Below, piece after piece: positions 1 through 37,428 of a stretch of DNA of 55,048 bases. Numbering within the stretch: position 1 is the stretch's first letter; each line of letters begins with the position of its first letter. The notes under the pieces were generated by a model. It had not been told where the DNA came from. It searched no databases and worked only from the letters and a program-made list of their open reading frames with translations. Made by a program: the position numbers and the translations under genes. Origin of the DNA: a virus (lineage: Duplodnaviria; Heunggongvirae; Uroviricota; Caudoviricetes); IMG/VR virus record IMGVR_UViG_2541047910_000003, positions 1 through 55,048 of that record; one strand, written 5' to 3'.

Positions 1-525
1 ATGAGTTTTCTTTTGCCGTGTGGTGGAATTATGAATAATATAGATTTATTAAAAACTATAACAAACTACAAAAAAATCAAAAATCCGGCATACCCGGCTC
101 AGGAGAGTCTGTTAATACACTTATATATTAGAGTAAATGACAAAATCCAGAGTATTATAGAAAATGAATTGAGCGAGTATAGAATAAACACTTCAACATT
201 TATGGTGTTAGTTTCATTATATATGTCTGATGATTATTGTCAGTCCCCTTCTGATATTTACAAGGAGTTACAATTCTCCAAAACAAACATCACACACATC
301 ATAGACAAATTAGAAAAAAAGAATATTGCCAAAAGAATTAATAATAAAAACGATCGTCGAAGCAAAAGTATTTGCTTAACCCCTGACGGAGTTACACTTG
401 CTCAAAAACTAATAAACACTCAAAATGTAATGCTAAAGAAAATCTGGAGCGGGCTATCAGATGATGAAATGAAAACATTTGAACTCGCCAACAAAAAATT
501 ATTATCAAACCTTAATGTTAATTGA
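1..525 (+). CDS. MarR-family winged-HTH transcriptional regulator
   Basis: 174-aa ORF. The core SPSDIYKELQFSKTNITHIIDKLEKKNIAKRINNKNDRRSKSICLTPDG is typical of a MarR wHTH. Very AT-rich. The ORF touches the window edge, so the 5' end is uncertain (internal Met at nt 31). Confidence 0.6.
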   Translation: MSFLLPCGGIMNNIDLLKTITNYKKIKNPAYPAQESLLIHLYIRVNDKIQSIIENELSEYRINTSTFMVLVSLYMSDDYCQSPSDIYKELQFSKTNITHIIDKLEKKNIAKRINNKNDRRSKSICLTPDGVTLAQKLINTQNVMLKKIWSGLSDDEMKTFELANKKLLSNLNVN

Positions 526-959
526 TGTTAAAACATACTAACAGTCATCTTCTTACAATGTATTCTTCTGGAGAGAATAACTACCTGAATATATAAAGAC
601 ATTAATCACACTCTCATTTAATTACAATGAGCATAAGAGCCACCAATGTTTATGCTGGTTAGGCTTTATACAGGAAACAATAAAAAAACGTCATTAAACA
701 AAGCGTTTTTAATGGCGTTGTTATTTAAAAGAAAGATATCAAATATAGATTAACCCCCATCGAATAAAGATGTTGTCTAATCATACCTGAAGGTATTTAT
801 CACTAGAATTTTATTTGTATAAATGGACATATACCATTGGAAGATTTAGAAAAGCATGTCTAGGAGTTTAAGGACAAATCTCATACTGATTATCGGAAGC
901 TTTTATCATTATATGATTACCAAGCATACAATGTATAATTATATACACTATTATTGTGA

Positions 960-1298
960 TTATAATTTGTTACTGTGCCACTCAAGGGCAATATCTTTGA
1001 AGGTGTTGTTTAACTGCGTTTCCCGGGCAATCTTTTCCTCTCGCTTCACTTCCATCAGATCGATTCCCCCAGAGATACCTCTTTTAGCTTCTTCAAGTTT
1101 TGCAGGAGCATCAGCTAAGGTGACCTCAGGATACACACCTAGTGCTAACAGCTTCTCTTTACCAGCTACACGATACTTGAGACGCCAATATTCTCCTCCA
1201 CCAGGTTTTACCAGGAGGTACAGACCACCACCATCAGCCAACTTGTAAGCCTTCTCTTTTGGCTTGGCAGTGTCTATTTGACGGGCATTGAGTTTCAC
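960..1298 (-). pseudogene. N-terminal fragment of a P4/CP4-57-type tyrosine integrase
   Basis: MKLNARQIDTAKPKEKAYKLADGGGLYLLVKPGGGEYWRLKYRVAGKEKLLALGVYPEVTLADA is the arm-binding N-domain (DUF4102-like) of P4-type integrases. It stops after 112 codons with no catalytic domain downstream. It lies 150 bp from a thrW 3'-end copy. Confidence 0.75.
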
Positions 1299-1450
1299 TT
1301 GGGGGTATCTCCACTAAACTGAACAGCAAATCCCCTCAATTGCTTGTAGAGTTTGGGGTACTTAAATAGACGTCAAAAGACTAAAAGGGGCATTAATATA
1401 CTGATTATAAGAGGTTTTTAAATACTTGAGTAGACTTGGGGAGACGTTAG

Positions 1451-1471
1451 AATGGTGCCGATAATAGGAGT
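1451..1471. repeat. 21-bp direct copy of the thrW 3' end (att junction)
   Basis: aatggtgccgataataggagt is identical to 13991-14011 and 53603-53623. Confidence 0.9.
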
Positions 1472-1614
1472 AAAACACTCGATTAATCTCGTGTTAATGC
1501 CATCACCTACGACCATTACTAATTGATTGAATCTTATAGAAAAAATCATCATTTTCTATGCGTTACAATCAATTTTCACATTACAAACGCTCCGACACTT
1601 TAGCCGGGGAGTTT

Positions 1615-2892
1615 ATGAGATACAAGCCCAATCAATACATAATCTGTGATTCTTACGGTAACTACTATTTGAGGATCACATTGCCTGTGTATATGCAGCC
1701 CTTTTTTGAAGGAAAAAGGACGTTTGTCAGGAGTCTACATACAAGTAATCTTCGTGTTGCACGTAGAAAGCGTGATCAGATTGCAGATGAATACCATTGC
1801 TTACGGGAGAGTGTCGCTCCTGTAAACAGCACAATAGAGAACACGCTGGAACTGTTACGAAGTAAGGCTAAATACGCCAAAACAGCTACCAGAATGCAAG
1901 ATACAGCGTCTTCGTGTCCGTCATTGCTTAAAATTCTTGAAATCTACCTGACAATTAACAGCACGAAGAAGAAGCCAGCCACTTTAGCTAAGGCAAGAAA
2001 AGCGGTAGAGATGTTTCTCTCCTACCGTAAAAAGCCTGATATTGCATTGCAAGATGTGAGCCGCACCACTGTTACAGGCTGGATTGAACACATGCAAAAA
2101 ACCCTTTCACAACAATCAATTGCAAATTATATCAGCCCAATGGCCCAGCTATGGGAGTTAGCTTCATCACGTTACCACGATGCGCCAGAAAGGGCGCTCT
2201 CCCCCTGGCGAGGGCATAGGCTTGATGTGGCACAAAGTAGAGAGAGCTACGAGGCATTTTCTAACAAAGAGCTATTGCAGGTGTTGCAAGTATTTTCCGG
2301 TAATTCAGCAGAAAACAAAGAAATGATGGCTTTGTGTCTTATCGGTTTATATACAGGTATGCGGATCAATGAGATAGCAAGTCTCACAATAGACGATGTG
2401 AAAGAGATCGAAGGTGTGCTGTGTTTTGAAATCACACAGGGAAAAACGAAAGCTGCGGCACGTGTTGTGCCTGTGCATAGCCTTATCACTCCGTTGGTGT
2501 TGTCGCTGCGTGAAAAGCCTCATAATGGCTTTTTGTTCTATCACGCCAGCATTACAGAGCGTGCTGATGGTAAACGCTCTACGTGGCACACGCAGAGATT
2601 TACAAGAGCTAAACGAAAGGCTTTAGGGGAAAAGGGAACAGAAAGGAAAGTGTTTCATTCTCTGAGACACGGAGTAGCACAGCTTCTTGATCGAAATCAA
2701 ATTCCAGAAGACAGGATCGCCCTTCTCCTGGGCCATACACGCGGCAATACAGAGACATTCCGCACATATAGCAAGAATGCAGCTTCTCCAGTAGAGCTTA
2801 AAAACTATATTGAGCTTCTACGCTACCCTGAAATAGAGAAAGGCTTATCAATCAATAAAAAATCAAATTTAAGGCGTAAAACAACGCCATAG
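1615..2892 (+). CDS. int: tyrosine recombinase/integrase
   Basis: C-terminal catalytic motifs are present: GMRINEIASL (Arg), HSLRHGVAQLL (H-x-x-R), LLGH, and a late Tyr (FRTYSK). The ORF is open from 1558, but GGGGAG precedes the Met at 1615. Confidence 0.85.
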   Translation: MRYKPNQYIICDSYGNYYLRITLPVYMQPFFEGKRTFVRSLHTSNLRVARRKRDQIADEYHCLRESVAPVNSTIENTLELLRSKAKYAKTATRMQDTASSCPSLLKILEIYLTINSTKKKPATLAKARKAVEMFLSYRKKPDIALQDVSRTTVTGWIEHMQKTLSQQSIANYISPMAQLWELASSRYHDAPERALSPWRGHRLDVAQSRESYEAFSNKELLQVLQVFSGNSAENKEMMALCLIGLYTGMRINEIASLTIDDVKEIEGVLCFEITQGKTKAAARVVPVHSLITPLVLSLREKPHNGFLFYHASITERADGKRSTWHTQRFTRAKRKALGEKGTERKVFHSLRHGVAQLLDRNQIPEDRIALLLGHTRGNTETFRTYSKNAASPVELKNYIELLRYPEIEKGLSINKKSNLRRKTTP

Positions 2893-2973
2893 ACGCAATA
2901 AAGAGGCTTCAACATAGATTGGTAGCCTCTTTTATAATTACATCGTTACAGAGCGTTTTAGAGGCGTTTACGG

Positions 2974-3687
2974 CTATTCCTGTTTAAAGGCAGGCGTAAT
3001 AGTGTCTTCACCTTCACTACTTGATCTTTCAGCGTTAACACGTTTCTTCAAATTCGCCCCGATGTTCTTAGATGGCTGTGTTTTGATAGCTACAGTGTTT
3101 ACAGTGCCATAAGACACTAATCTGATCTGTTCAAATTCCAAATCAAATACCAGGGATTCGCTTGCCTCTTCTGTGTATTCGATGCCTGTTAAAACAACGT
3201 TCTCAAAAGTTTTATTTTCTGTAACAAGAAGAAAAGGCTGTCTACTGTCCATAATCTGATTCAGATAATCTATAGCCAATGATCTTCTGTTCCCGTTCAC
3301 CCCTGCACTCTTTAACAAGCCAGGATCGCTTTTAATCGGTGTTTCAGTGATCCTTCCTTTAAGAGAAAACTTATTGTTTTTAATTTGAACGTGATCAGAC
3401 ACAGTAGCACCATTCTCTACGGGGTAGCTTGTGACATCTGCCGAACGTCTCACGTTCACATCGTCTACACTGTCAAAGGCCAGCGCCATATAATTTTCAT
3501 AAACGTCATTGCCAGAAGATGCCAAGCCACTGGTAACAATAGCAAACCCATTTTCTCCTTTTGTTTTATTGGCTTTGCTATTTTCGTTTTTTGTAGAGTT
3601 TATATCTTGTTCTGCTTTGTAAACAGCCTGAACGTGTTGTTCTGGAGTATTTGCTGCACGTATGGTTAAAATTCCCGCCGTTGCCAT
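2974..3687 (-). CDS. putative phage tail/baseplate protein (Dit-like)
   Basis: 237 aa. The motif SADVTSYPVENGATVSDHVQIKNNKFSLKGRIT plus a C-terminal beta-rich region recalls Dit-like tail proteins. It sits directly downstream of the tape-measure-like gene. Assignment is from pattern memory only. Confidence 0.4.
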   Translation of the reverse strand: MATAGILTIRAANTPEQHVQAVYKAEQDINSTKNENSKANKTKGENGFAIVTSGLASSGNDVYENYMALAFDSVDDVNVRRSADVTSYPVENGATVSDHVQIKNNKFSLKGRITETPIKSDPGLLKSAGVNGNRRSLAIDYLNQIMDSRQPFLLVTENKTFENVVLTGIEYTEEASESLVFDLEFEQIRLVSYGTVNTVAIKTQPSKNIGANLKKRVNAERSSSEGEDTITPAFKQE

Positions 3688-3717
3688 AATAATTTCCTTG
3701 TAATGTTATGGCGGGAA

Positions 3718-5553
3718 TTACCCGCCGTTGGATTGTCCTGATAAGCTGGTTAATGTTAATGATTTCAAGAAGCTATCCCGACTTGCTCTCGCTGTAAAAT
3801 CCACATAATCGCTTAATCTTGATGTGTCAGAATTAATAGTAAGAGGAACCTCTGTTACCACTTCAAATGTAGGATTCAGATTAAACACAGGAGATAAATT
3901 ATAAGCTGGAGTTGTCATTGTAAGATTATTTAAAGCACCCTGTTTGAGATTGGTTATCGGTGCTTCGCTGACTGACATTTTTACATCTGACACAGAAGAA
4001 GCATTATCATCGAAAAGCCATCCCTTAATTGTGTTAAAAAGAGAATGACTATTATCAGGTGTAGTTGTTGCAGTTCCAGCGCCTTTATATTGGTCAGGAA
4101 CGAGATTAGAAAGATGCTGTTTCATCCCTTCATTGCTTAATGGCGGTGCATCTCCCATATTTTTCTGAATAGCATCTGTCTTATCATCATTACGATTAAA
4201 CCAGTTTACAATCTTCATAATGGCCTCAAAGAGACTTCCTGTAGCTTCTCCCAGCTTCGTAAAATACGGAGTGAGATTAGAAAGGTTTTTCATAAACTCT
4301 TCCGTTACTTTTGGATCGAGAGATTTCATAAAGCCGTCTACAAATGCTACTTGTCTTGCATCAGAAAGCTGTGAAAGCTGTCTGTTTAGTTCTCTGAATT
4401 TAACAATAGATTCTTGCTGTGTTTCTGTTAGCCATTTTCCAGAGGCTTTTTGCTGATTAATACTTTCTTGTACATCTTTAACGGAACGTTGCCAATATTT
4501 TGATGTAAGCATCAAATCATCGCCCAGGTCTTCTAAACGTTGTCCAATTTGGGAGTCTGAAAACCCTTTTTTCATCATTCCATTAACAGCCTTAGAAATT
4601 AATCCGGCTGGATTATCAGCAAATTTTTTAAGGTCGCTCTTGTTAATAACACCGATGTTTAGAAGTTCATTAATAGCGTTATCACCGCCTTTCCACTCGC
4701 CGCCTTTACCAGTTTTTTTATCGACTACATATTCAGCTTCACTATAGGATTTTGCGGCACGTTCCCTAACATCTTTCATCTGATCCAGGTATTTCCTAGC
4801 CCCTTGATCACCCATCATAGAGTCAACGCCGTTTCTATACGCCCATTCTGTAATATTATACATCTGGTTAACGTCTACACCGCCAAGCCTTGCACGTTGG
4901 ATTAATTCTCCTTGTGTTTCAGCATTAGCGAAGCTATTAGCCATAAACTCGGCGGTTTTACTAACAGCCATCACGCCAGCAGCAGCCGTAGCGCCTCCAA
5001 ATAACAGAGCGCCCATAGTGGCGGAATTCCCTGATCCTCCCTTAACGGGGGCAAATTGAGCTTTTCTGTTGCCATTAATCTTACGTTGTTGTTGTTGTAA
5101 GCGTTTCATTTGGCTATTCATACGTGCAAGCGAGATAGCGCCTTGTTCGTATTGTTTCGCTATCTCTCTAGCCTGTGCAATAGCTTTATATTGTTCCGCT
5201 ACAGAGAGGCGGTGCATTGCACTTATAGAGCTTGACACATCAAGGAGTTTTAATTCTGCTTTCTCTTTACGTGCTGCTATTTGTGCCTGTTGCCTTGCCT
5301 GTGCTCTTGCTGCGGCAGCTTGTGCTCTTTGATTCTGTTTTTCGTTTTTCGCTTTCTGTTGAGCAATCTTATCTACTTCACTTTGTGCTTTCTTATAGCC
5401 TTTAGTGACATTATCAAATCTTAATTTAGCTGGCTTGATGTTCTCTGCGAATTCCTTTAAGCCTGTAATAGAGTCTTTCGCTTTTTTCAAGCTGTCTTTA
5501 TCTACACTAAATGTTACTGTGTTCTTAATTTTAGAAGTGTTAATTTCTAACAT
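3718..5553 (-). CDS. tape-measure-like or internal virion protein
   Basis: 611 aa. It has an N-terminal Q/A/K-rich coiled coil (QRAQAAAARAQARQQAQIAARKEKAE) and a hydrophobic Gly/Ala segment (GALLFGGATAAAGVMAV). The remainder is long and helical. No enzymatic motif seen. Confidence 0.5.
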   Translation of the reverse strand: MLEINTSKIKNTVTFSVDKDSLKKAKDSITGLKEFAENIKPAKLRFDNVTKGYKKAQSEVDKIAQQKAKNEKQNQRAQAAAARAQARQQAQIAARKEKAELKLLDVSSSISAMHRLSVAEQYKAIAQAREIAKQYEQGAISLARMNSQMKRLQQQQRKINGNRKAQFAPVKGGSGNSATMGALLFGGATAAAGVMAVSKTAEFMANSFANAETQGELIQRARLGGVDVNQMYNITEWAYRNGVDSMMGDQGARKYLDQMKDVRERAAKSYSEAEYVVDKKTGKGGEWKGGDNAINELLNIGVINKSDLKKFADNPAGLISKAVNGMMKKGFSDSQIGQRLEDLGDDLMLTSKYWQRSVKDVQESINQQKASGKWLTETQQESIVKFRELNRQLSQLSDARQVAFVDGFMKSLDPKVTEEFMKNLSNLTPYFTKLGEATGSLFEAIMKIVNWFNRNDDKTDAIQKNMGDAPPLSNEGMKQHLSNLVPDQYKGAGTATTTPDNSHSLFNTIKGWLFDDNASSVSDVKMSVSEAPITNLKQGALNNLTMTTPAYNLSPVFNLNPTFEVVTEVPLTINSDTSRLSDYVDFTARASRDSFLKSLTLTSLSGQSNGG

Positions 5554-5772
5554 TTAAAACCCCCCCTTATTAATCATTTTACCACCTTCTTTACTTAAGA
5601 AATGGTGTAGAGCCTGATCAATACTCTCGTTTAGTCTGAACATACGGGCTTTTACGCCTTCATATGGAACATCTAAGAGAGAACAGAGATATTTCAGATT
5701 TAACAAGCCTCTAGAATCATTAGCATCTAAATGTACGTGTACACCATTTTTTGATTTCAAAATCACTTCCAT
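5554..5772 (-). CDS. hypothetical protein
   Basis: 72-aa ORF that abuts the start of the 611-aa gene. It is the first gene after the capsid-gene terminator. Confidence 0.4.
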   Translation of the reverse strand: MEVILKSKNGVHVHLDANDSRGLLNLKYLCSLLDVPYEGVKARMFRLNESIDQALHHFLSKEGGKMINKGGF

Positions 5773-5794
5773 ATTTTAATCACCTCTCAAAATT

Positions 5795-5838
5795 TAAAAA
5801 TAAATAAAAAAAGGCGAAGCGTGAATACACGCCACGCC
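5795..5838 (-). terminator. intrinsic terminator after the capsid gene
   Basis: Stem ggcgaagcgtg/cacgccacgcc (internal mismatch), followed on the minus strand by TTTTTTATTTATTTTT. Confidence 0.65.
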
Positions 5839-5857
5839 TCTATTACACGTTAAAATA

Positions 5858-6886
5858 TTATTTAACAGTGATTTGAACGGAGAAGCCTACACCGTGGTTT
5901 ACAACCATCTGGCTATTCTCTGTAACAACGTTAACAGCATCACCACGAGAAGATTCATAGCTGTAACTATACACCTCAGCAGGAGCGGCATTAATCAGTT
6001 CAAAGGTGCTGGAAGCCGCCCCATAGATGGCCTGGTAGACGTTAGAGAATTTAGCGAATTTAGGCACAGCTACAGCGTCTGCGGTCATATGTGCAAGGTG
6101 TAGCGGATCTACCAGTTTAACAACATCAATGTTAGTTCCTGGAATAGTGAACGCTGTCACTCCTGGTAGCAGGTCACGACGCTGATACACAACGTTCCCT
6201 TCTTCCAGTGGGCTTACATACTGGAATGCGTTTGCCATACCAGCAGAGAATCGAATTGCAGAGAAGGCTTCCGGCTTACAGAAAACAACAATACGCTCTA
6301 CAGCAGCCGCCTGGCTTTGTGCTTTTTCGATAATGTCAGTAGCAATCTGATCAAATTCTTTAAAAATCTTCGTGGTGTCAGTGCTGGAAGCGTTCACAGT
6401 GGCTTTCATAGCTGATACGTTAAACAGCTTGCCCCACTCAATTAACACATCATCAGTTTTAGGCGTGTAAGTTTTGCCAGAGAACAAAGAAGCAGCCAAT
6501 ACGCTCTCTTTTGTACGCTGGAATGCAACATTGTGTTTAGCAACATATTCCGCGTAGATATCAGTGAGTGTTTCCTGGAAATCAGTGCCAGGTTTACGTT
6601 TGCCTTGAACATCAGAAGGACGGATCACATCTTCACGCAGGAAGTAAGGGATCTCGATCAGCCATTCTTTACCTTGTTCTCGCTTAGTAACATTGTGTTC
6701 AGAAGAGAAACGAGAGGTTTCTTTGTTGAACAGAGATTCGTTGCTTTCGACAAGCTGGGAAACAGCTACTTTATGAGATGTAACCCCTACAGAATCCGTA
6801 AAATCAAGGGTAGAAAGCAGATAATTTCTAGTGCTATGCGCAGAGAACAGAGGAGCTAAATCAACGTAATCATTACCTAGAATCAT
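5858..6886 (-). CDS. major capsid protein, lambda gpE-like (HK97 fold)
   Basis: 342 aa, the same length class as lambda gpE (341 aa). Colinear resemblances include the C-terminal GFSVQITVK versus lambda EFVSVQLA. It is preceded by a small decoration-like gene, as in the lambda D-E order. Confidence 0.6.
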   Translation of the reverse strand: MILGNDYVDLAPLFSAHSTRNYLLSTLDFTDSVGVTSHKVAVSQLVESNESLFNKETSRFSSEHNVTKREQGKEWLIEIPYFLREDVIRPSDVQGKRKPGTDFQETLTDIYAEYVAKHNVAFQRTKESVLAASLFSGKTYTPKTDDVLIEWGKLFNVSAMKATVNASSTDTTKIFKEFDQIATDIIEKAQSQAAAVERIVVFCKPEAFSAIRFSAGMANAFQYVSPLEEGNVVYQRRDLLPGVTAFTIPGTNIDVVKLVDPLHLAHMTADAVAVPKFAKFSNVYQAIYGAASSTFELINAAPAEVYSYSYESSRGDAVNVVTENSQMVVNHGVGFSVQITVK

Positions 6887-6904
6887 TTATTATTATTCCT
6901 TTTA

Positions 6905-7267
6905 TTAAGAAGTGAAAACAGAATGGAACCCTTCAAGCTGGAAGCCTTTTTTAATTAATGCTGTTTTTGCTGCTTCACTTACAGCATTCAGGGCATCAGC
7001 TTTAATGCATACAAGCCCAGCATTGCTACGTAAAACATCTACAGGCTTGTTGTCTCCAGCCGTTACAAATTCACTCATAACAACATAGATATCATCTCCT
7101 GATACATATTTAGCGCCCGTGCTGGTGATCAAGTCGCCGCACTCAACATCAGCAGGAAGAGAAGCAAAAACCTTGCTTTCTACAGAGGCAAACGGATCAG
7201 TACAATAACTTACAATATCTGTGAAAGTCTTTCTAACTGGAAACAGAGTGTCTAAATCAATAATCAT
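6905..7267 (-). CDS. putative head decoration/cement protein (DUF2190-like)
   Basis: 120 aa, immediately upstream of the capsid gene. The pattern GDLITSTGAKYVSGDDIYVVMSEFVTAGDNKPVDVL is reminiscent of DUF2190-type proteins. Confidence 0.4.
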   Translation of the reverse strand: MIIDLDTLFPVRKTFTDIVSYCTDPFASVESKVFASLPADVECGDLITSTGAKYVSGDDIYVVMSEFVTAGDNKPVDVLRSNAGLVCIKADALNAVSEAAKTALIKKGFQLEGFHSVFTS

Positions 7268-7476
7268 TTAGTAATCTCCTTAGCTTTTAATTTGATTAAT
7301 TCATTAATGGAAGGTGTAGACGGAGAAGAAGGAGAAAAATATTTTTCAACACATCGTTCTACGTCCTCTACAGAACACCCAGCGTATTTAGCTACCATTT
7401 CGGTAATTTGTGGATTAATTTTCAGCATTTCATCTTTATACTTGATGATTTGCTCTTTATCATTTAAGAACAACAT
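7264..7476 (-). CDS. hypothetical protein
   Basis: 70-aa ORF that overlaps the next gene by 4 nt. It is the first gene of the capsid operon. Confidence 0.4.
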   Translation of the reverse strand: MLFLNDKEQIIKYKDEMLKINPQITEMVAKYAGCSVEDVERCVEKYFSPSSPSTPSINELIKLKAKEITK

Positions 7477-7535
7477 TTATATAAACCTTGTTACCTTGTT
7501 TAAAGTAAGAAATACAACTTTTAAGTTGCATAACG

Positions 7536-7569
7536 GGCAAAATAAAAGGCAGCATTTAAAGCCGCCTTT
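7536..7569 (-). terminator. intrinsic terminator between the early-like and capsid operons
   Basis: Stem aaaggcagc/gccgccttt, followed on the minus strand by TTTTATTTTG. Confidence 0.55.
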
Positions 7570-7806
7570 GTAATTACCCTATGTTATGCACACTCCAAGA
7601 TGTATGCATAACAAAGGAAAAAAGAGGTATAATGACACAGTATTACTTAAGGAGGAGAAGCGGGGAGCGGAGATTTTACTCCCCTTTAACGACAAGAAGA
7701 ATTTTTAATATCGAACCAATAAAGGAAAAATAATAACCCTATATAATTATATTAACATACAATATATGAAATGTCAAGATATTTTACAACTTTTTTGTTG
7801 CTTTTT

Positions 7807-8172
7807 TTATTCTTCTGTGATAGTAGCGCCTAAGCGTTGAGCTAGTTCAACAAGTCCATCTCCTACATAGCGAACATCAGAGTCGATATCTTCTATCCAG
7901 TTTGATAGCTCCCATAGCTGAGAGGCTGTCAGGTATGCGTTCTCACGCTTACAGAGCATCTCTACACGCTTAGAGAGGTGCTCAAAGGCATTCACAGCTA
8001 AATCCCAGTGTTTAAACGCCTCATTTAGTGCCGCTGGCGTGTTTTCTTTGTATGCTTCAAGTTCAGCGCGGTTTAAAGGCAGGAGGTAATCATCCTCATA
8101 ATAATTAATTAGTGAGTAAATTGTGTCATACGTGTTTTTGTTCATATTAAAAGTCTCCATAGTGATCAGCAT
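7807..8172 (-). CDS. hypothetical protein
   Basis: 121-aa acidic helical ORF in an operon with the upstream genes. Confidence 0.4.
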   Translation of the reverse strand: MLITMETFNMNKNTYDTIYSLINYYEDDYLLPLNRAELEAYKENTPAALNEAFKHWDLAVNAFEHLSKRVEMLCKRENAYLTASQLWELSNWIEDIDSDVRYVGDGLVELAQRLGATITEE

Positions 8173-8557
8173 TATCTAAAATTTGAAAGTCTGGAACTAA
8201 ATTATTTAGGCCATTGGTGGCGAGATAACCAACGTAGTGGTTATAGTCTTCAAATCCTAAAATCTGGTATTTGCGTAAATCAGAGCTATCAACAATATAC
8301 TCTTTTCTTTTTCTAGGTTTCCAGAATACGCCAGGTGTTGAAGATAAGATTTCTTGTAAGGCGTTAAATTCATCTCCACAAGGCACAGAGGGAGAATGTT
8401 CTATGATCTCTGTTTTCCATTCGCCAGGGGCGCTATTATGCTTGGTGAGCGTAACTAGCTCTTTAAAGTCTTTGCGTCTTAGAATAGATTTAGGTTTACT
8501 TAGAAGAGAAGCTGAATCACCGATTTTCTTAACAACGTTGTTTTTTCTTTTTGCCAT
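8147..8557 (-). CDS. hypothetical protein
   Basis: 136-aa ORF with a basic N-terminus (MAKRKNNVVKK). Confidence 0.4.
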   Translation of the reverse strand: MAKRKNNVVKKIGDSASLLSKPKSILRRKDFKELVTLTKHNSAPGEWKTEIIEHSPSVPCGDEFNALQEILSSTPGVFWKPRKRKEYIVDSSDLRKYQILGFEDYNHYVGYLATNGLNNLVPDFQILDNADHYGDF

Positions 8558-8686
8558 TTATTTTTCCTTTTCTTTTAAAGGAAAACACCCCGAAATATGC
8601 TTCTAACGTGAGAAAGAACAATAACCAATACATAGCTACTATCATAATAATGTTTTCCTTTTATATTTTAATTACATAGAGAGATT

Positions 8687-8965
8687 TTAGAGAGTGGAAT
8701 AGATGAATTCTATTTCTTTATCTAGTCTTTTGAGATTGAATGTAGAGAAAGATAATTCTTTAATCTCTATAACACCGAAATTTGATAGCTGTTTCAGCCA
8801 GAATTTTAAACCAGCTTCAGAGCACCCTGCTCGATGTAACACATCGCTATATTTTAGCGGTGTTGGCTTTCCTTTATAGAGGTAAGCAAGTGTCTCGTAG
8901 ATGCGTTTTCCTGTGTCATTACACTGAATTCTGTCTACTTGATTTTTTACTAAATATTGAATCAT
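8687..8965 (-). CDS. small winged-HTH-like protein
   Basis: 92 aa. SDVLHRAGCSEAGLKFWLKQLSNFGVIEIK resembles a wHTH. Confidence 0.4.
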   Translation of the reverse strand: MIQYLVKNQVDRIQCNDTGKRIYETLAYLYKGKPTPLKYSDVLHRAGCSEAGLKFWLKQLSNFGVIEIKELSFSTFNLKRLDKEIEFIYSTL

Positions 8966-8976
8966 AACCCTCCTTA

Positions 8977-9708
8977 TTAAAATGGAATATCAAAGTCGTC
9001 ATATACATTTGGGTAATGCTTAGAAAAATATGCCTCAATACCATTTGGTCGTTTTAGCCCGTATCTACAAGCTAGTGAATTTGCAAACTCAATAAATGAT
9101 GCTCCTCCTGTTCGTGTGTGTTTCTCCTGGATGATAAGAGAGGCAAAATTCTCTAACACATCCTCCTCATTATCATTAGCTACCTTTTCACTTGATGAAA
9201 CAGGTGTTTCTTCCGTCTCCCACGGCAAAGGCGCATCCCAATCATCAAGAACATCAAAAGAAGGCTGTTTATGGCCTTTAGGTTGTTCCTGTGCTTCTTC
9301 TGCCTCAGAAAGATCAGAGAGTGATGATTCTCCTGGGGGAGTAATATGTGCATCTGTAAATGGTAATGCTTTATAGAGTGATGTTTGACCGTCCCGTGCC
9401 TCTACAGAAAGAACTCCCATATCAACAAACATATTTATAATATTGCGAACCTGGCGATCACTAACCATTCCAATATTAGCTAATGTTTTTTGAGTAGCGT
9501 AACATTCTTGCCCTTGTTCATTGAATCCAGCTATATAGCTATAGATTTCAACGGCTGGCAGTGTAGCGGTGTATTCATTACCAGATGGTGAATACCATTT
9601 TTTAAACATCTTCAACCATTGCTCAACAACTACATATTTTTGTTTACCATCTTTCTGATTTAGACATTTGGCTTTCGCTTCGGCAATTGTTTTGATATTT
9701 TTGATCAT
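8977..9708 (-). CDS. putative replication-initiation/origin-binding protein with an SSB-like C-terminal tip
   Basis: 243 aa. N-terminal wHTH (QKTLANIGMVSDRQVRNIINMFVDMGVLSV), an acidic linker, and a C-terminus ending ...VYDDFDIPF. Confidence 0.45.
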   Translation of the reverse strand: MIKNIKTIAEAKAKCLNQKDGKQKYVVVEQWLKMFKKWYSPSGNEYTATLPAVEIYSYIAGFNEQGQECYATQKTLANIGMVSDRQVRNIINMFVDMGVLSVEARDGQTSLYKALPFTDAHITPPGESSLSDLSEAEEAQEQPKGHKQPSFDVLDDWDAPLPWETEETPVSSSEKVANDNEEDVLENFASLIIQEKHTRTGGASFIEFANSLACRYGLKRPNGIEAYFSKHYPNVYDDFDIPF

Positions 9709-9832
9709 TTAGTTCCTCCTTTGTAAGGACTGTAATTAGTAGTTCATTAACAAGTTTTGGAATTGATTTCCCTTCTGCCTTTGCGCGATTTAACAACGCG
9801 TTATAAGTTGCAGAATCAAAATTAATATTCAT
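9644..9832 (-). CDS. ribbon-helix-helix (CopG/Arc-like) protein
   Basis: MNINFDSATYNALLNRAKAEGKSIPKLVNELL fits a beta-strand plus two-helix RHH pattern. The 3' end overlaps the next ORF. Confidence 0.5.
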   Translation of the reverse strand: MNINFDSATYNALLNRAKAEGKSIPKLVNELLITVLTKEELNDQKYQNNCRSESQMSKSERW

Positions 9833-9855
9833 TTGGTTTTCTCCTTCTCCTGTTA

Positions 9856-10038
9856 TTATTCTTTCTCTGCTTCTTTCTTACGCAGTTCATCAATAATCTT
9901 GAGTGCTTCATTGAAGCAAGCTGCTCGCTCTGGATAACCTCGACTCCTTGCCATATTACGATTCATTACTACTTGGTGGCGTGTAAGCTCACCTTCTTTA
10001 AATGCCTGTACGACGTGTTCCGGTGTAAACCATTTCAT
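9856..10038 (-). CDS. hypothetical protein (first gene of the leftward operon)
   Basis: 60-aa ORF with an AAGGAG RBS upstream. Confidence 0.45.
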   Translation of the reverse strand: MKWFTPEHVVQAFKEGELTRHQVVMNRNMARSRGYPERAACFNEALKIIDELRKKEAEKE

Positions 10039-10149
10039 AAAAACTCCTTATTCAGTTAAAAGAAAAAACACCTTGCAAGCCTGACGGCTTCAAAGTGCAT
10101 TGATTTTGATTATTTAGAGAAGAATGTTTTTCTGTCCCTCTAATACCTA

Positions 10150-10177
10150 TTATTACATATAAAGAAACATTTGTCAA
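10150..10177 (-). promoter_or_regulatory. sigma70-like promoter for the 10038-to-7807 operon
   Basis: On the minus strand: TTGACA, 16 nt, TAATAA. The -35 is at 10172-10177 and the -10 at 10150-10155. Confidence 0.55.
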
Positions 10178-10811
10178 TACCCTTTTCGAAAAAAATCGAT
10201 CTTTTTCAGCATGTTATAATTTGTCTTAGCAATTCGTGCTCTTCTGTGTAGTGCTATTCTTCATTATTGTCTAAAACGCTCTAAAACGCGTTCTAACGAA
10301 GTTTTGATAAAAGCAATACATTCTCTTATGTAGAGGCTATTTATCTCGTCAGAGGCTTATTTAAGGGGCTTATTTTGTATTTGTTAGGTATATGAAAAGG
10401 TGATGGTAGATATAAAACAGAGAGTCACTTTATAAAACGTTCTGTAAAGCCCTGTAGTGAGCTTATATATGTAGGCAATGCGTTTCCATTCCCTACCCTG
10501 CTTAATGCTGTTAGAGAAGCATTTAGACCCCTTATTTTTAATTACCTAAAGTATCCTCTATACATCTCTGTTATGAAACACCTCTGAATCCTTCATAAAA
10601 CACATTATGACGCAAAGAACACCTTTTCTAAGGTGATTCCCTTCCTGAATGCTGTTTCTTGCGTCAGAGAGCTACATAGAGCTTATAAAGCTATTATTAA
10701 TAATAAAGTAGATAAAGTAAGTAAGATAAGTAAGAAGATTAACTAAGATAGATAAGATTAATAAGATCAGAATTCTCTTTCGGTGTCGCCTCTGGCTTTT
10801 CCACCGAAAAC

Positions 10812-10969
10812 AATTACACGACTACAGAATGTAGGAAGTGGAATTGTATTGAGGCTTAGTGAAATTACACGAGGAAAGCAGAGTGTAATTGAGCTTTAGC
10901 CGCTCTCTCTTCGAGTAATTACACAACTACAGAGAATAACGAGAGTTATTAAATGTAGGAAGTGGAATT
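10812..10969. repeat. repeat cluster (AATTACAC boxes plus two exact 18-mers)
   Basis: AATTACAC at 10812, 10863 and 10917, and inverted at 10883. aatgtaggaagtggaatt is exact at 10828-10845 and 10952-10969. Confidence 0.8.
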
Positions 10970-11239
10970 AAGAGGTAGAGAGATAGAGTTAACACATAAG
11001 CAATCAGTATGATTGGTTAGGTGATTACTCTTCTGCGCACAGCGCAATAGTATTTCTTCGTGGGCGTTACCGCCAACGATAGTTACACGAAGAAAGTAAC
11101 GCTTTGCTTTCGGTGTGAGCGGAACGGGCCAGCCAACGTAGCCCAAAGGTAGCGGAGTAAGGCTGCTTGCCAGAGAGTGAAGCTAACGCCGGAAGGCAAA
11201 AAGATCATATATATATAGTATAAAGAATATTATTTATAT

Positions 11240-11295
11240 TATTTAATTATAGTATTTAATTATAGTATTTAATTATAGTATTTAATTATAGTATT
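11240..11295. repeat. four perfect tandem AT-rich 13-mers (DNA-unwinding-element-like)
   Basis: tatttaattatag occurs four times head-to-tail (11240-11291) plus a partial fifth copy. Confidence 0.9.
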
Positions 11296-11298
11296 GGT

Positions 11299-11398
11299 GG
11301 AACTCATTTCCTAGGTAGGTAGGAACTCATTTCCTAAGTAGGTAGGAAACCACTTCCTAGGTTACTTCCTAAATAGATCGGAAATCATTTCCTAGGTG
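11299..11398. repeat. iteron array A (about 23-bp units)
   Basis: ggaactcatttcctaggtaggta, ggaactcatttcctaagtaggta, ggaaaccacttcctaggtta and ggaaatcatttcctaggtg are directly repeated. Confidence 0.85.
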
Positions 11399-11413
11399 TT
11401 ATTTATACTTATC

Positions 11414-11471
11414 GGGTATCAGTTTTGATAGGGGTATCAGACTTGATAGGGGTAACAGAATTCTGTGGGGG
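11414..11471. repeat. iteron array B (18-bp units)
   Basis: gggtatcagttttgatag, gggtatcagacttgatag, then gggtaacagaattctgtggggg. Confidence 0.8.
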
Positions 11472-12142
11472 TAGCTCACAGTGACCTACCGTTACTACCA
11501 ACTTTCTTACAGAGAGCATTTCAGATAGCTGAATGTAACCTCTCGTTACATCCATTTGTCACATAGCACTCTGTGTAATGCCTTTCTATGTGTGTGCCAT
11601 AATCCCCCTATATTCCCTGTGTAAATCATAGAATAATGCTCTCTATTCCCTGTGTAATTCCATACTAAAAATTCAATGAAAAAGTAGCTTAAAAGTGCAA
11701 TTCTCACTTTCTTCACTTTTACATCACTTTCGCAAAGCCTTGTGTAATGCGGCTTACAGCGCACTATCAGAAATTGTTGGCTAAAAATTGTTCTGCTTGT
11801 TTCTTAATGAGTTTTCTTGTTTGTGCAAATTTTAAAATTTATTTTGTTTTTACAGCCTTATTTCGTGTAATGCGTGGCATAGCAAGCCCTTTTCTTGTGT
11901 TGTCAAGACATTTGGCAACGTTCAAACATCTGTTTAGAAATGCCAAATTGTTGATCTAACAAATAAACCTGTATAAACAGAACACCATTTAATCTATTCC
12001 CCTGTGTATCCATTAGGCATACCAAATGAATACATCTAAATCGTGTAATATTCCGTACCTATAAGGCTTGAAACAGACAAAATGAATACGATATACTCAT
12101 TTGCATTGAAGTAGTGCCAAATCGATACATTAAGAGGATTTT

Positions 12143-12682
12143 ATGAGCAATATCGGTTATAAGCGTGTGAGCACTGTAGATCAGAACACTGATCGCCAGC
12201 TTGCAGGAGTAACGCTTGATAAAGTCTTTGAAGATAAGCTGTCAGGTAAAGACACTAACCGTCCAGGATTGCAGGCGTGTTTATCCTATCTGAGAGAAGG
12301 CGACACCTTACACGTCCACTCTCTTGATCGTTTAGGGCGTAACACCTTAGACATTCTGGAGTTAATCAAACAATTGAATGATCGAGGTGTAATTGTTCGC
12401 TTTCACAAAGAAGGAATCATTGCTGACATTACAAGCGCGATGGGAAAGATGATGCTTACGATGTTGTCGGCAGTTGCAACGTGTGAACGTGAACTGATGT
12501 TAGAGCGTAAACGAGAAGCGCAAGCCGTCAATCCTACAAAGCGTGGTAAAGGGAAGGCAGTAGATAGGGAAGGTATAAAGAAAGCCCTTTCCGCTGGCGT
12601 GTCAGTGCGTAAAACCGCCGAGAGCTTTAATGTTGCTCCTTCAACGGTGCAACGTATCAAGAAGGAAGAAGAGGAGGCGTAA
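12143..12682 (+). CDS. serine recombinase (resolvase/invertase family)
   Basis: GYKRVSTVDQNTDRQ contains the catalytic Ser motif. LDRLGRN is present and a C-terminal HTH (VRKTAESFNVAPSTVQRI) follows. 179 aa, the same domain order as Tn3/gamma-delta resolvase. Confidence 0.85.
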   Translation: MSNIGYKRVSTVDQNTDRQLAGVTLDKVFEDKLSGKDTNRPGLQACLSYLREGDTLHVHSLDRLGRNTLDILELIKQLNDRGVIVRFHKEGIIADITSAMGKMMLTMLSAVATCERELMLERKREAQAVNPTKRGKGKAVDREGIKKALSAGVSVRKTAESFNVAPSTVQRIKKEEEEA

Positions 12683-12699
12683 TGCCTCCTTGATATTTG
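12673..12699 (+). terminator. terminator after the resolvase gene
   Basis: ggaggc-gtaat-gcctcc followed by ttgatattt. Confidence 0.5.
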
Positions 12700-13009
12700 G
12701 GGATTCTGGATTTTCCAGATCGGGGGGCGCTGATCTTCGCGTTAAACATTGATCACGTTTGCGCCGATTTCAGATAAAAAGGCAGCTATTAAGCAATACG
12801 TAACTTTTACAATTAGTGAAATTATCTAAAACACAAGTTATATAGATGAGAAAATGAAATATTATCTTGAACAAATCAAACAAAACAACACATCATCTTG
12901 TTGACACCATGCAAAGTGAATAGTAAGCTATTATATGTGAAAATTTGCACATTGCATGCAATAAAAAATAAATGATACCTTGTTGTTGTTAAATCAATAG
13001 GGGGTATCT

Positions 13010-13168
13010 ATGCGCTTTATCTTATCCATTTTAAAAACCTGCAGAACCACAATTACTTTAGCTGTAATTGTTACCATCATATACCTCATCTATTTTACCC
13101 CTCGAGATAAAATCGATTCACTAGCGATCATCGTTCATGCAATGGCTACATTAACTAAAAAACTTTAA
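13010..13168 (+). CDS. small hydrophobic membrane peptide (52 aa)
   Basis: Hand translation gives MRFILSILKTCRTTITLAVIVTIIYLIYFTPRDKIDSLAIIVHAMATLTKKL. A GGGGG RBS lies upstream. A promoter (TTGACA, 17 nt, TAAGCT) is at 12901-12929. Too short for the ORF track. Confidence 0.4.
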   Translation: MRFILSILKTCRTTITLAVIVTIIYLIYFTPRDKIDSLAIIVHAMATLTKKL

Positions 13169-13234
13169 TAATTTCACTATCAGGCGCACAAACACATCTT
13201 TGATTGCTGGATGTGTTATGCGCCTACTGGTGAT

Positions 13235-13387
13235 TCAATCCTTAAGCCATTTCAACTCACTAAGGAGTTTTCTTTCTTCGTTCTCTCGCTGTTTACGCTC
13301 TAGCCAGGCTTTTCCCTCTGGCGTAGACAGGAACTTACGAGCGTGAATCTTGCGGTTATTACGTTTTATAGCTGCAATGTTTTTCAT
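13235..13387 (-). CDS. small basic protein (50 aa)
   Basis: Hand translation gives MKNIAAIKRNNRKIHARKFLSTPEGKAWLERKQRENEERKLLSELKWLKD. It converges on the 52-aa ORF across a long hairpin (13183-13224). Confidence 0.35.
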   Translation of the reverse strand: MKNIAAIKRNNRKIHARKFLSTPEGKAWLERKQRENEERKLLSELKWLKD

Positions 13388-13990
13388 CGTGTTGCCTCTG
13401 TATTCATATGAAAATTAACAAGTTACATACTACACAGGGAGACTACGCATAAAACACAATACAAGTAAAGATACATTTTCAAGACAATAGGAGCCATAAA
13501 GCGCCTTTGATGGTTATACCAAAAAATAAGCGCCGTAGGCGTATCCACTAAAAGGGCTTTTTCACAAAAGCTATGAAGTCTTAGCAGTTCTTCTCTTATC
13601 AGGCACCCGTTGTACTCCGGTGGACGAAACCGTGCTAGAGCTTGATTCTTTCCCGATCAAGTTAGGTTTTGAAGAGGTGGGCTTTAATCCACTATTGCAC
13701 TTAAAACTCTTCCCATCATTTAGCCTGTTTATCCTCTGCAACGTCTCACGACGTGTGGCATCATTGGACACCGCGCCAGGTGTGGAACATCTTGCTAAGA
13801 GTTTTGGTAGAAGGTTTAGAGACGGTGGCACGTCTTCCAGCTTCAAAGGAACTTGTTACGAGGTTGAGCCTGGGAACTACTCGCCCATACGTGTTACACT
13901 ACCAAAGCCCATAACAACGTATAGGCGTTTGTAAGTGATAACAGAAGATACAATTTCTTAGAGAAGTTAAGCTAAGTTATTGATTTTCTT

Positions 13991-14038
13991 AATGGTGCCG
14001 ATAATAGGAGTCGAACCTACGACCTTCGCATTACGAAT
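13991..14038. repeat. 48-bp direct copy of the thrW 3' end (distal att junction of the P22-like prophage)
   Basis: Identical to 53603-53650. Its first 21 bp also equal 1451-1471. Confidence 0.95.
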
Positions 14039-14322
14039 CTGTAGCACCAATCATAACTATCTGTTTTAGCAAGCATTAACCGCATTCACTAAGCTATAGT
14101 TGATGGCACAAACAGAAAGCTGATGCATGATGTTGTCATGTGTATGTCACAAATACGGCACAACGATCTTCAAACATGTAGCCACTCAGCATAGAAGAGC
14201 ACAAAGCCTTGCAATCCAGTGCAAAGCTTTGTGTGTCTCAGTTTTTATAAATTCTTAAGCAAGAATTATAGTTATAACTATTATGTAAGTTTTATGATAT
14301 ATATTGTATTTAAATGCTGGTT

Positions 14323-16401
14323 TTACTTATTAACCCAACCTGTAGCATTTGTGTTGCTTTCCTTTATATAAAGTACTGTATTTCCACCTCCATCAGAACG
14401 AGTGTAAATAGAACCAACTGGTGCTCCAACTCCGCTAGATGTTGGGTTGCCTTCTTGCCCAAATATCACAAGTGAGCTTTTATCTGTAGCTTGATTATTC
14501 TGTGTGGCTGATGTTCCAAATGAAACATTCCCTATAAATGACACGCTCTTACAGCTTGATGTAGCAAATATACCAACTGATGGTTTATTATTTGCAACGC
14601 CATCACGAATTTGATTTGAACTAACAATTACATTTTCTGCACCAGAGTCAATTCGTATGCCATTATGGTTATTATCTGCGGTAGAAACCCCAACTATAAT
14701 GTTTGATTGAATAGTAACATTTGAATATTTACCATTAATATGAATCCCATGCAGGGAAATATTTCTAAAGATGTTGCTAGAAATTACAACATCATGCGAA
14801 AAACCAGACCCTATAAATTCTTCTGCATTAGTTTCAGAAATCCATAAAGAACTTGATGTTCCTGAATCGTATTCATTATTAGAGATGATTGATTTGTTAA
14901 TAAAATCACCTTTGAAAAAACCGATTCCGCCTCTTGCTGTGTTTCCAGTGACAGTTAGTCCTGAAACCCATCTTGCGTCTACTGCATATGATTGAGACTC
15001 TGTAATAAAAATGGAATTGTTGGATATTACGATATCTTCATGAAATGCATCTGATGTATCTGTATATGGATATGTAGGTGCAGCCAGAAGAATCGGGGAT
15101 CTAACGCCTTCAAAATAATTGCCAACAATGCGCCCCCTCCTTGCCCCCTGTGGTTTTGATGATGATGGGAATGGGGTTACATGAACTCCTCGCGCGGTAC
15201 TGTTATAGAAAGAGCATCCGCTAACCACCCAATCATACCAGTTGAAAACCCTTACCCCGGCAAAGAGCATTCCATCGAACCTGCAGTTTATGACCCTTAT
15301 ATTTTTGTCCTGATTCCCATATGAATTAGCATGGTTCCCAACCCCCCCCCCCCACGCCCCAAACCCAGTGGTGGTATTTTGTGGATTTGAACCAAAATAA
15401 CAGTTATCAACAAGAACATTGATGTTTGGGTAATAATCGCCAAGAGATTCAATCCCCGGATCTAACTGGATCGCTTCTGAATAATTTCGGTTGGAAAGTG
15501 GTTTGAAGCCAAGAAACTTACAGTCTCTTATAATCACCCCTTGCCCGTCAGCAATATCTACAGCATGAAAATCGACTACATCAAGAAATGTTACTCCAAC
15601 AATAGAAAGATTTCTTGGTGAGGAGGCTGCAATGATGTCAAAAGGATCTGTAGGGTGGTCTTGTCCTCCTCCATCTAGTATTCCGCCTGTTATTTTAATG
15701 TTAGTGCCAGTATTAGGGCTTATTCTCAGCATGACGTCATTAGAAAAATTACGTTTAATGGTTACGCCATCAGTCATCTTTAGGTGAGTATTTGATTTTA
15801 TTTGCAACTCAGAAAGCAAAGTATATATGCCTGGTAGTGAAAACTGTAGTGTACCTCCTCCAATGCTATATATTGCATCTAGCGCAAATTGCAGAGCTAC
15901 TTTATTGTCAGCATTCGATGGATGAGCACCGAAGTCAAGAACATCAATGATTTGTTGGTTCTTTTGGTGTTGAGTTTGATTTGCTGCTCCGGGGAATGGT
16001 TGTTTCACCGACACTAATTCATCCCCATCACCATCATCAAAGGATGCCAACCTCTTCTGAAACTGATCAGGGTCATACTTCAGCACATTAGGAAAATAAA
16101 ACTGCTGCGCACCATACGCATCATAAACCGCCATAGAATGGCCTTGCACAGTTACGAACTTGGCAATCTGTCCGTTATATACAGGGTAACCAGCAGCGTT
16201 AATGATGATTGGTTGAGAAACAGGAACGTGAGAACCATCTTCGTTCTCAACATAGACCTGAATCTGGTTTTCAGGATTTACCGGGTCAGTGTCAATTTTA
16301 CCGATATAAATTTTGCCATTGGCTACGGCTTTAAAAGAACGAGCCATAGTGAAGAGTTGCGAAGGCATACTCACTACAACATTGGCTGTAATGTCTGTCA
16401 T
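14323..16401 (-). CDS. tailspike (P22 gp9-type head-binding domain plus beta-helix receptor-binding domain)
   Basis: The N-terminus [64 protein letters not shown] matches the conserved P22-family tailspike N-domain as I recall it. The remainder is Asn/Gly/Ser/Thr/Ile-rich, as in parallel beta-helices. Confidence 0.9.
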
Positions 16402-37347: not shown

Positions 37348-37423
37348 TGGTGCTGGTTAACGGACTTGAACCGCTACCCATTCGCTTACAAGGCGACTGC
37401 TCTACCATTGGAGCTAAACCAGC
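37348..37423 (-). tRNA. tRNA-Thr (anticodon UGU)
   Basis: Hand fold: GCTGGTT-TA-GCTC-CAATGGTA-GAGC-A-GTCGC-CTTGTAA-GCGAA-TGGGT-AGCGG-TTCAAGT-CCGTT-AACCAGC-A-CCA. Confidence 0.8.
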
Positions 37424-37428
37424 ATATT

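Follow-up and report, generated by a model that had tools for sequence, protein, structure and literature searches.

The window analyzed here comprises 55,048 nucleotides (IMG/VR virus record IMGVR_UViG_2541047910_000003) of Escherichia coli chromosome, in which direct repeats of the 3′ end of thrW are found at 1451-1471, 13991-14038, and 53603-53650. The first two of these repeats enclose a small integrated element (12.5 kb, 1451-14011; to 14038 in Table 1, with the second repeat counted in full) with the profile of a phage satellite. On its minus strand, an open reading frame (ORF) at 8977..9708 begins with ATG, ends with a stop codon at 8977-8979, and encodes a protein of 243 residues (the 243-aa protein), homologs of which are named in databases only as "transcriptional regulator," "HTH domain protein," or "hypothetical protein." On the sequence evidence described below, we consider this protein to be very probably the origin-binding replication initiator of the satellite. 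Its translated C-terminus reads ...KHYPNVYDDFDIPF and then stop, and the last residues, DDFDIPF, resemble the C-terminal tip (SSB-Ct) of E. coli SSB (single-stranded-DNA-binding protein), which is the hexapeptide DDDIPF (PMC5872125), on which many genome-maintenance proteins dock (PMC10164576, PMC7913777). The tip comprises D240-I241-P242-F243 plus D237 and D238, and F243 directly precedes the stop codon. The last four residues (DIPF) are identical in the two proteins and occupy the extreme C-terminus, with acidic residues upstream and an acidic or disordered region in both. The carriers of the peptide differ, however, in that SSB is a tetramer of oligonucleotide-binding (OB) folds and the 243-aa protein appears to be of a winged-helix, double-stranded-DNA-binding type.

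The initial annotation had read both the SSB-like ending and an N-terminal winged helix-turn-helix from the sequence, and the translation, Pfam, and structure prediction agree with it on these points. The sole Pfam match is to HTH_36 (residues 55-98, 25.2 bits against a cut-off of 25). An AlphaFold2 (AF2) model built on 23 family members, with a mean predicted local distance difference test (pLDDT) score of 74.5, places a winged helix at residues ≈30-120 with a pLDDT of ≈90; this N-terminal DNA-binding domain is DnaD-like, as in initiators of the RepA_N type and of the type of RepA from PLEs (elements that resemble phage-inducible chromosomal islands). At its end lies ALPFTDAHITPP, a motif of the ALPxTDAHxxPP type that is the most conserved internal stretch of the family: L115, T118, D119, H121, and P125 are almost invariant in an alignment of 23 sequences (A1), and A114, L115, T118, D119, A120, H121, P124, and P125 are invariant in one of 11 sequences (A3). 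The position of this motif is also that of the recombination breakpoint between the winged-helix and C-terminal modules. The long acidic linker described in the initial annotation is present as well, with 18 Asp or Glu against 3 Lys or Arg in residues 126-185, but the tip does not stand at its end, as had been supposed, because a folded domain (residues 180-239) lies between them. In some distant homologs, the position of the linker motif SFDVLDDWDAPLPWETEE reads PDLDDIPFAWDEP or PDFDDLPFVWDAPEY, an internal motif that itself resembles the SSB tip (DLDDIPF, DFDDLPF). The folded domain, which we term type A, is modeled as four helices (180-194, 205-215, 224-231, and 233-239) with a pLDDT of ≈85, and the tip is attached to it, the last ≈4 residues being unstructured and the last block having a pLDDT of ≈50. 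Neither an OB fold in the AF2 model nor a Pfam SSB match is found in the protein, and the model thus indicates that the 243-aa protein is not an SSB and that its likeness to SSB is confined to the tip.

A lack of conservation among homologs had been named in advance as one result that would refute an SSB-like role of the tip, and the tip is conserved. Among the 120 closest homolog clusters (62-95% identity to the 243-aa protein), 116 end in [DEN]FD[IL]PF, and the remaining 4 are truncated or extended beyond the motif. A more diverse set consists of 26 relatives that retain the C-terminal half at 25-50% identity, and a genome scan supplied homologs from Escherichia, Erwinia, Enterobacter, Citrobacter, Serratia, and Buttiauxella. 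All 26 diverse relatives end in Phe, 22 in PF, and 21 in [ILV]PF, a pattern that spans seven enterobacterial genera. By position, Pro is found at −2 in 22/26, Ile, Leu, or Val at −3 in 25/26, and Asp or Glu at −4 in 13/26; some of those that lack an acidic residue at −4 have a one-residue insertion. Typical endings in the family are DDFDIPF, EEFELPF, EFEDLPF, DFDSIPF, and FDPIPF. The family is small, as only 35 clusters were recovered when 1.84 billion cluster representatives were scanned exhaustively with HMMER, and the terminal Phe and the ALPxTDAHxxPP motif are the best-conserved features across the whole of it.

The tip is present on two unrelated C-terminal domains. Type A has the signature ...FIEFA...LP.GIE.YF...HP..Y, and a second domain, type B (ELPWGG..KPNG...WALTETMGDE...), takes its place in some homologs with the tip kept. 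Chance as the origin of the tip is ruled out by its conservation down to ≈25% identity and on both domain types. The codons of the tip vary synonymously between loci (CCA/CCC, TTT/TTC, ATT/TTA/CTA, and GAC/GAT/GAA/GAG), and the ribosome-binding site of the downstream gene lies 3′ of the initiator stop codon; the conservation is therefore at the level of the protein. Within the window, 1 of the 622 stop-to-stop ORFs of at least 40 residues ends in PF, and it is that of the 243-aa protein. The expected number ending in DIPF is ≈0.003, a figure calculated from assumed E. coli-like residue frequencies and not from frequencies measured in the window.

Table 1 Coordinates of the satellite, its main genes, the parts of the 243-aa protein, and the origin-like repeats. 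Positions are those of the window; TRF, Tandem Repeats Finder; att, attachment site.
Feature	Position	Strand	Basis
Satellite, ≈12.5 kb	1451..14038		att repeats 1451-1471 and 13991-14038 (48 bp, copying the 3′ end of thrW)
Tyrosine integrase	1558-2892	+	Pfam, PHROGs
Dit-like tail protein	2974-3687	−	Pfam, PHROGs
Tape-measure-like protein, 611 aa	3718-5553	−	Pfam, PHROGs
Major capsid protein, HK97-type (Phage_cap_E)	5858-6886	−	Pfam, PHROGs
92-aa gene downstream of the initiator gene, at a distance of 12 nt	8687..8965	−	ORF list
Putative satellite replication initiator gene	8977..9708	−	ORF list, translation
SSB-Ct-like C-terminal tip DDFDIPF-COOH, aa 237-243	8980..9000	−	Translation
Four-helix C-terminal domain (type A), aa 180-239, ≈60 aa	8992..9171	−	AF2
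Disordered acidic linker, aa 131-179	9172..9318	−	AF2 pLDDT <50
Acidic-aromatic linker motif SFDVLDDWDAPLPWETEE, aa 150-167 (W-D-x-P)	9208-9261	−	
ALPFTDAHITPP motif, aa 114-125, junction of the variable winged helix and constant C-terminal half	9334..9369	−	
Winged-helix DNA-binding domain, aa ≈30-120, variable specificity module	9349..9621	−	AF2 model
62-aa ORF, upstream, overlapping the initiator start by 65 nt	9644..9832	−	ORF list; common to phage PaulScherrer
Five tandem AT-rich 13-mers TTAATTATAGTAT, candidate DNA-unwinding element	11230..11295		TRF (5.1 copies, 96% matches), repeat search
Iterons, 23 bp, GGAACTCATTTCCTAGGTAGGTA and TTCCTAGGTAGGTAGGAA type, 3-4 copies	11299..11402		TRF, repeat search
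18-bp repeat GGGTATCAGACTTGATAG, 2.6 copies, adjoining the iterons	11414..11459		TRF
Small serine recombinase	12143-12682	+	Pfam, PHROGs

About 1.6 kb upstream of the initiator gene, the 2-kb non-coding region of the satellite contains an origin-like array (11230-11460), in which the AT-rich 13-mers are followed by iterons, the putative target sites of the winged helix. The window has 5.1 copies of the 13-mer, and the related island L001 (22658-22697) has 3.1. Upstream of a distant homolog (P0137, in L007), a similar 24-bp repeat, TACCCCTATTAAGCCTGATAGGGG, adjoins an array of AT-rich 12-mers; upstream of the homolog gene in L008, TRF detects no tandem repeats that would confirm iterons there. 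No DnaA box is found in the non-coding sequence 10040-12142. The motif GTGTAAW is concentrated in this part of the satellite, with 11 of the 19 copies in the window falling within the 2-kb non-coding region (10023-12049). The array has four copies on its left side (10813-10924), three of them in the minus orientation, and six on its right side (11573-12049), every one in the plus orientation; these clusters may be divergent promoter or regulator sites that flank the origin.

A comparison of three E. coli elements (that of the window, L011, and L013) shows that the winged helix co-varies with this array. Their non-coding flanks are ≈99% identical, and the ≈190-bp iteron cassette (about 11296-11489) is wholly different in each, that of L011 containing four copies of GGTAGGTCACTGTGAACTAGGG. 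Each cassette is paired with a different, unrelated winged-helix module, and the linker, C-terminal domain, and tip are identical in all three.

The initial annotation had called the 243-aa protein a putative origin-binding protein, and this co-variation, together with the 13-mers and iterons, family profiles, fold, and a phage nuclease discussed below, gives that description strong, if indirect, support. The PHROG matches of the protein and of eight relatives are all to families labeled "replication initiation," "O-like," or "DnaD-like." The winged-helix fold resembles the N-terminal domain of PLE RepA, and the best structural match is a satellite initiator; a profile search against PDB sequences returned generic winged-helix regulators only. 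The protein has no Rep_3 match in Pfam, nor does its model show the two tandem winged helices of Rep_3-type proteins, having instead a single winged helix that is followed by a disordered linker and a domain of four helices. A circular E. coli record, CP148565.1 (L015, 13,238 bp), lacks an integrase and carries capsid, tape-measure, and baseplate genes; its sole initiator candidate is a 298-aa HTH_36 protein without the IPF tip, upstream of whose gene lie 23-bp iterons (6686-6757). Either this record is a relative of the satellite that resides on a plasmid, or it represents an excised form that was assembled as one. A search of plasmids yielded no full-length homolog of the 243-aa protein, only the 13.2-kb circle with its tip-less relative and two other partial matches.

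The gene content of the surrounding element points to a phage satellite. It is small, integrated, and bounded by att sites, with an integrase and a few phage-related structural genes, and it further holds about ten small ORFs and the 2-kb non-coding region. None of its ORFs matches a helicase, primase, terminase, or portal in Pfam or PHROGs, in keeping with the initial annotation's statement that the element encodes no helicase or primase. The same island is present alone at thrW in CP062871. In tblastn comparisons with the lytic Justusliebigvirus PaulScherrer, the satellite proteins show identities of 60% (Dit), 30% (tape measure), and 21% (capsid). The element is probably a satellite of this kind and not a plasmid-like replicon, and plasmid maintenance, which had been suggested as an assay, would then probably be the wrong one without a helper phage. 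A search of 5426 complete E. coli genomes gave DNA related to 8600-10100 in 659 of them. A literature search of incomplete coverage found no published description of a satellite of Justusliebigvirus or phi92-like phages, and the satellite family of Justusliebigvirus phages is apparently both widespread in E. coli and undescribed. As a type, it appears to be covered by none of the descriptions found of P4, phage-inducible chromosomal islands (PICIs), capsid-forming PICIs (cfPICIs), or PLEs.

The phage itself appears to use the same motif. Adjoining the polymerase and primase-helicase genes of PaulScherrer is an unannotated gene, bas60_0040 (L004:39090-40037; PHROG 4477), the product of which reads ...QDFDDDIPFAPIGLQYGRNFLHCF in its C-terminal region, with an internal DFDDDIPF. 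In a sample of 100 homologs (P0156-P0255), D[ILV]PF is found within the last 25 residues in 99, 78 end in [ILV]PF, and 47 end in exactly DFDDDIPF; a frequent ending is PPMDFDDDIPF, which is of the host type. Justusliebigvirus and some other members have an extension of ≈15 residues, APIGLQYGRNFLHCF, after the motif. In the model of bas60_0040, an all-beta domain at the N-terminus precedes a helical domain and a disordered tail, and its Foldseek matches, although weak (E at least 0.012), are all to OB-fold proteins that bind single-stranded DNA (STN1, RPA32, lactococcal phage p2 SSB, and Rim1). The bas60_0040 family is probably a phage SSB. Because the Justusliebigvirus protein and the linkers of distant satellite homologs carry internal copies, whatever reads the motif in this system may tolerate a non-terminal copy. 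No PaulScherrer ORF ends in an acidic stretch plus IPF, and a tblastn search of this phage with an approximate E. coli SSB sequence gave no match. A further candidate, bas60_0223, which ends in DDDSEF and has no family annotation, was dropped.

Some phages also encode a protein with winged helices of the initiator type. The 332-aa muut_154 (L002:3634-4632), present in phages muut, inny, Mt1B1_P17, and BI-EHEC and not found in PaulScherrer by tblastn, consists of two HTH_36 domains and a MUG113 domain of the GIY-YIG clan. The second of its winged helices shares 91% protein identity and 97% DNA identity with that of the 243-aa protein, and the first is 45% identical to that of the distant satellite homolog P0137; in a variant, P0124, the first winged helix is 62% identical to that of another homolog, P0152. 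The nuclease Odn of phage ICP1 combines a RepA-like DNA-binding domain with T5orf172 and cuts the PLE origin (PMC8263062). By analogy, muut_154 is an apparent counterpart of Odn, possibly with dual specificity.

Among known systems, the 243-aa protein in its mechanism most resembles PLE RepA, judged by analogy. RepA, of the RepA_N type, belongs to the PLE of Vibrio cholerae, an integrated satellite of the lytic myovirus ICP1, and is likewise a small initiator that has neither helicase nor primase. Its DNA-binding domain co-varies with the iteron origin while its C-terminal half is constant (PMC8263062), the same pattern as found here, and the helper nuclease Odn/Gp88 joins the initiator's DNA-binding domain to a GIY-YIG-type domain, as muut_154 does. 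RepA alone, without phage, does not drive replication (PMC7145576), and the half that stays constant has been suggested to help recruit the replisome (PMC8263062). The differences are that RepA has no detectable sequence similarity to the 243-aa protein, another C-terminal half, and another host and helper, and that the satellite described here, unlike PLE, carries its own capsid, tape-measure, and Dit genes. An SSB-Ct-like tip is not mentioned for RepA, the term "SSB" having 0 occurrences in PMC7145576 and PMC8263062.

More distant parallels exist. Lambda O-like and DnaD-like initiators (PHROGs 391, 186, and 270) bind iterons and hand over to a helicase loader, and they show weak profile similarity to the winged helix and part of the region downstream (E 4e-8 to 8e-5). 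This similarity is marginal, however, the 243-aa protein is much smaller, and the satellite lacks a P-like or DnaC-like loader gene. The initiator TrfA of plasmid RK2 contains a clamp-binding motif, and T7 gp4 has an acidic, Phe-terminated C-terminal tail that resembles that of the phage SSB, gp2.5. These proteins share the principle that a short, replicon-encoded peptide copies a hub-binding motif to draw in polymerase or replisome parts. Their motifs and targets are different, and to our knowledge none of them is an origin-binding protein with a copy of SSB-Ct. Mimicry of hub motifs by replicon proteins is thus known in principle, but the copy of SSB-Ct on an origin-binding initiator appears to be new; our literature search, the coverage of which was incomplete, found no published report of an SSB-Ct-like tip on an initiator that is not an SSB.

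With moderate confidence, we propose that the iteron-bound satellite initiator presents an SSB-type docking peptide to replisome proteins of the host or phage. The winged helix, similar to those of PLE RepA and RepA_N proteins, would bind its cognate iterons beside the AT-rich 13-mer array, and the constant C-terminal half, composed of the acidic disordered linker, the helical domain, and F-D-I-P-F-COOH, would serve for recruitment. The tip would act as a short linear motif of the SSB-Ct type, in which acidic residues, Ile or Leu, and Pro lead up to a terminal Phe whose carboxylate is free. In complexes of ExoI, chi, PriA, and RecQ, the binding pocket reads the terminal Phe and its carboxylate, and the strict C-terminal position of the tip fits this mode of recognition. 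Initiators arrayed on the iterons could display several tips at the origin, much as SSB-coated single-stranded DNA does. These tips might then dock proteins that have an SSB-Ct pocket, either from the host (PriA, PriC, DnaG, the chi subunit) or from the replisome of the helper phage, and docking would initiate replication of the satellite, which has no helicase or primase gene of its own. Because the phage encodes a probable SSB with DFDDDIPF, its replisome proteins are as plausible as partners as the host primosome factors. The absence of DnaA boxes and of a loader gene fits the need for such a route. In its fuller form, in which a double-stranded-DNA origin binder has copied the SSB tip and its iteron array imitates SSB-coated single-stranded DNA, capturing the SSB interactome of the host or helper, we offer the proposal only tentatively. 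What the data themselves show is the sequence of the tip and how widely it is conserved, the arrangement of domains, the joint variation of winged helix and iterons, the resemblance in fold, and the setting among satellite and phage genes; every protein-protein contact of the tip is something that we infer.

A number of observations weigh against this reading. The tip has a Phe at −5, where SSB has Asp, and this Phe is conserved. Several relatives have an inserted residue (FDPIPF, FDSIPF) or few acidic residues (QSTIPF, KWGIPF, SAVPF), and four lack the Pro and end in IKF, IGF, IAF, or ISF. Winged-helix relatives without any tip also exist (P0138, P0148, P0153, P0155, and the protein of CP148565.1), and the tip is therefore not essential to every member. 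It directly follows the AF2 helix 233-239 with ≈4 free residues, whereas the tip of SSB is borne on a long disordered tail. Both DNA binding and origin function of the 243-aa protein are themselves properties that we infer, and the protein is not a RepA_N sequence member, because it has no match to Pfam RepA_N (PF06970), only that to HTH_36 at threshold.

Retention of the tip even where the C-terminal domain has been exchanged would also suit a decoy, in which the tip, and perhaps also the linker motif, is a competitive SSB-Ct mimic that titrates SSB-Ct-binding proteins away from the SSB of the phage or host and damps replication of the helper phage. A phage of the helper type depends on an SSB-like protein in which this motif is found, such that a competing peptide would have a target, and satellites commonly interfere with helper replication, as PLE replication lowers that of ICP1 (PMC7145576). 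Such a role is compatible with recruitment to the satellite origin and could accompany it. Nevertheless, we consider it unlikely, as a decoy has no need of fusion to an iteron-specific domain that co-varies with the origin cassette, and stoichiometric titration would demand very high expression. It is also conceivable that the contacts of the tip are made within the protein or the satellite. The linker and tip could fold onto the basic DNA-binding surface of the initiator itself, much as the acidic tails of SSB, T4 gp32, and T7 gp2.5 are autoinhibitory, or they could bind another satellite product such as the 92-aa protein; in that event convergence would account for the likeness to SSB-Ct, which would play no part in docking partners of SSB. 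The attachment of the tip to a folded domain instead of a free tail, the constant adjacency of the 92-aa gene, and the conserved Phe at −5 that SSB lacks are all in line with this possibility. The free swapping of winged-helix modules beside a constant tip, however, speaks against an intramolecular partner that has co-adapted within the DNA-binding domain, and the identity of the last four residues with SSB and their strict C-terminal position are hard to explain by an unrelated contact. We regard this explanation as improbable.

The database name "transcriptional regulator" and the many regulators that the winged-helix fold matches raise the question of whether the protein is a transcription factor, with the repeats as operators between divergent promoters and the tip contacting RNA polymerase or a phage inducer. 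The repeats do lie in a 2-kb non-coding region between divergent genes, where GTGTAAT motifs flank them in opposite orientations. This seems to us quite unlikely, given that all PHROG matches are to replication initiators and the best structural match is a satellite initiator, that the iterons abut a five-copy AT-rich 13-mer array, that the phage nuclease with its borrowed winged helix parallels an origin-directed nuclease, and that the plasmid-like relative CP148565.1 has no other initiator. It is extremely improbable that the tip instead binds the beta clamp, tags the protein for degradation, or resembles SSB-Ct by chance. C-terminal hydrophobic peptides ending in Phe, of the type QL[SD]LF, also bind the clamp, but the last five residues of the 243-aa protein are F-D-I-P-F, with Pro at −2 and Asp at −4 in the two Leu positions; there is no Gln in this pentapeptide or in that of the family, in which Pro at −2 is likewise found, and we rejected the clamp motif.

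How initiators of satellites and plasmids without a helicase or primase recruit a replisome is explicitly an open question for RepA_N proteins and for PLE RepA, for which the mechanism is stated to be unknown (PMC7145576). The constant half of the initiator described here ends in a peptide with well-characterized binding pockets, which makes the recruitment question directly testable in E. coli. Should the SSB-type docking proposal hold, mobile elements would recruit by SSB-Ct mimicry as well as by clamp-binding motifs, and this mimicry would represent a previously undescribed way for a replicon without a helicase or primase to start replication. The SSB-Ct hub would then be a point of three-way competition among host, lytic phage, and satellite. 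In E. coli, the system also supplies an apparent second case of what is seen with PLE and ICP1, in which a satellite with a modular replicon is opposed by a phage whose nuclease has a DNA-binding domain borrowed from the initiator. By analogy, replicon module swapping and Odn-like nucleases of dual specificity may reflect a satellite/phage arms race like that of PLE and ICP1, a view that, taken jointly with the imitation of SSB-coated single-stranded DNA, we put forward as a possibility somewhat short of probable.

The genes that border the initiator gene are both small. The 92-aa gene downstream is found after the homolog at equal position and size in L001, L008, L009, L011, and L013 as well, and its product has no family match in Pfam or PHROGs. 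The 62-aa ORF upstream has 99% DNA identity to PaulScherrer bas60_0101 (98% over 53 residues by tblastn). Its 3′ end departs from bas60_0101 within the 65-nt overlap with the initiator gene and resembles a recombination junction between phage and satellite. An Rfam scan of 1-15000 gave only sub-threshold chance matches. Directly after the satellite, the thrW att site is occupied in tandem by a second prophage of ≈39.6 kb (window 13991-53650), which carries genes for tRNA-Thr(tgt) and tRNA-Asn at 37348-37503.

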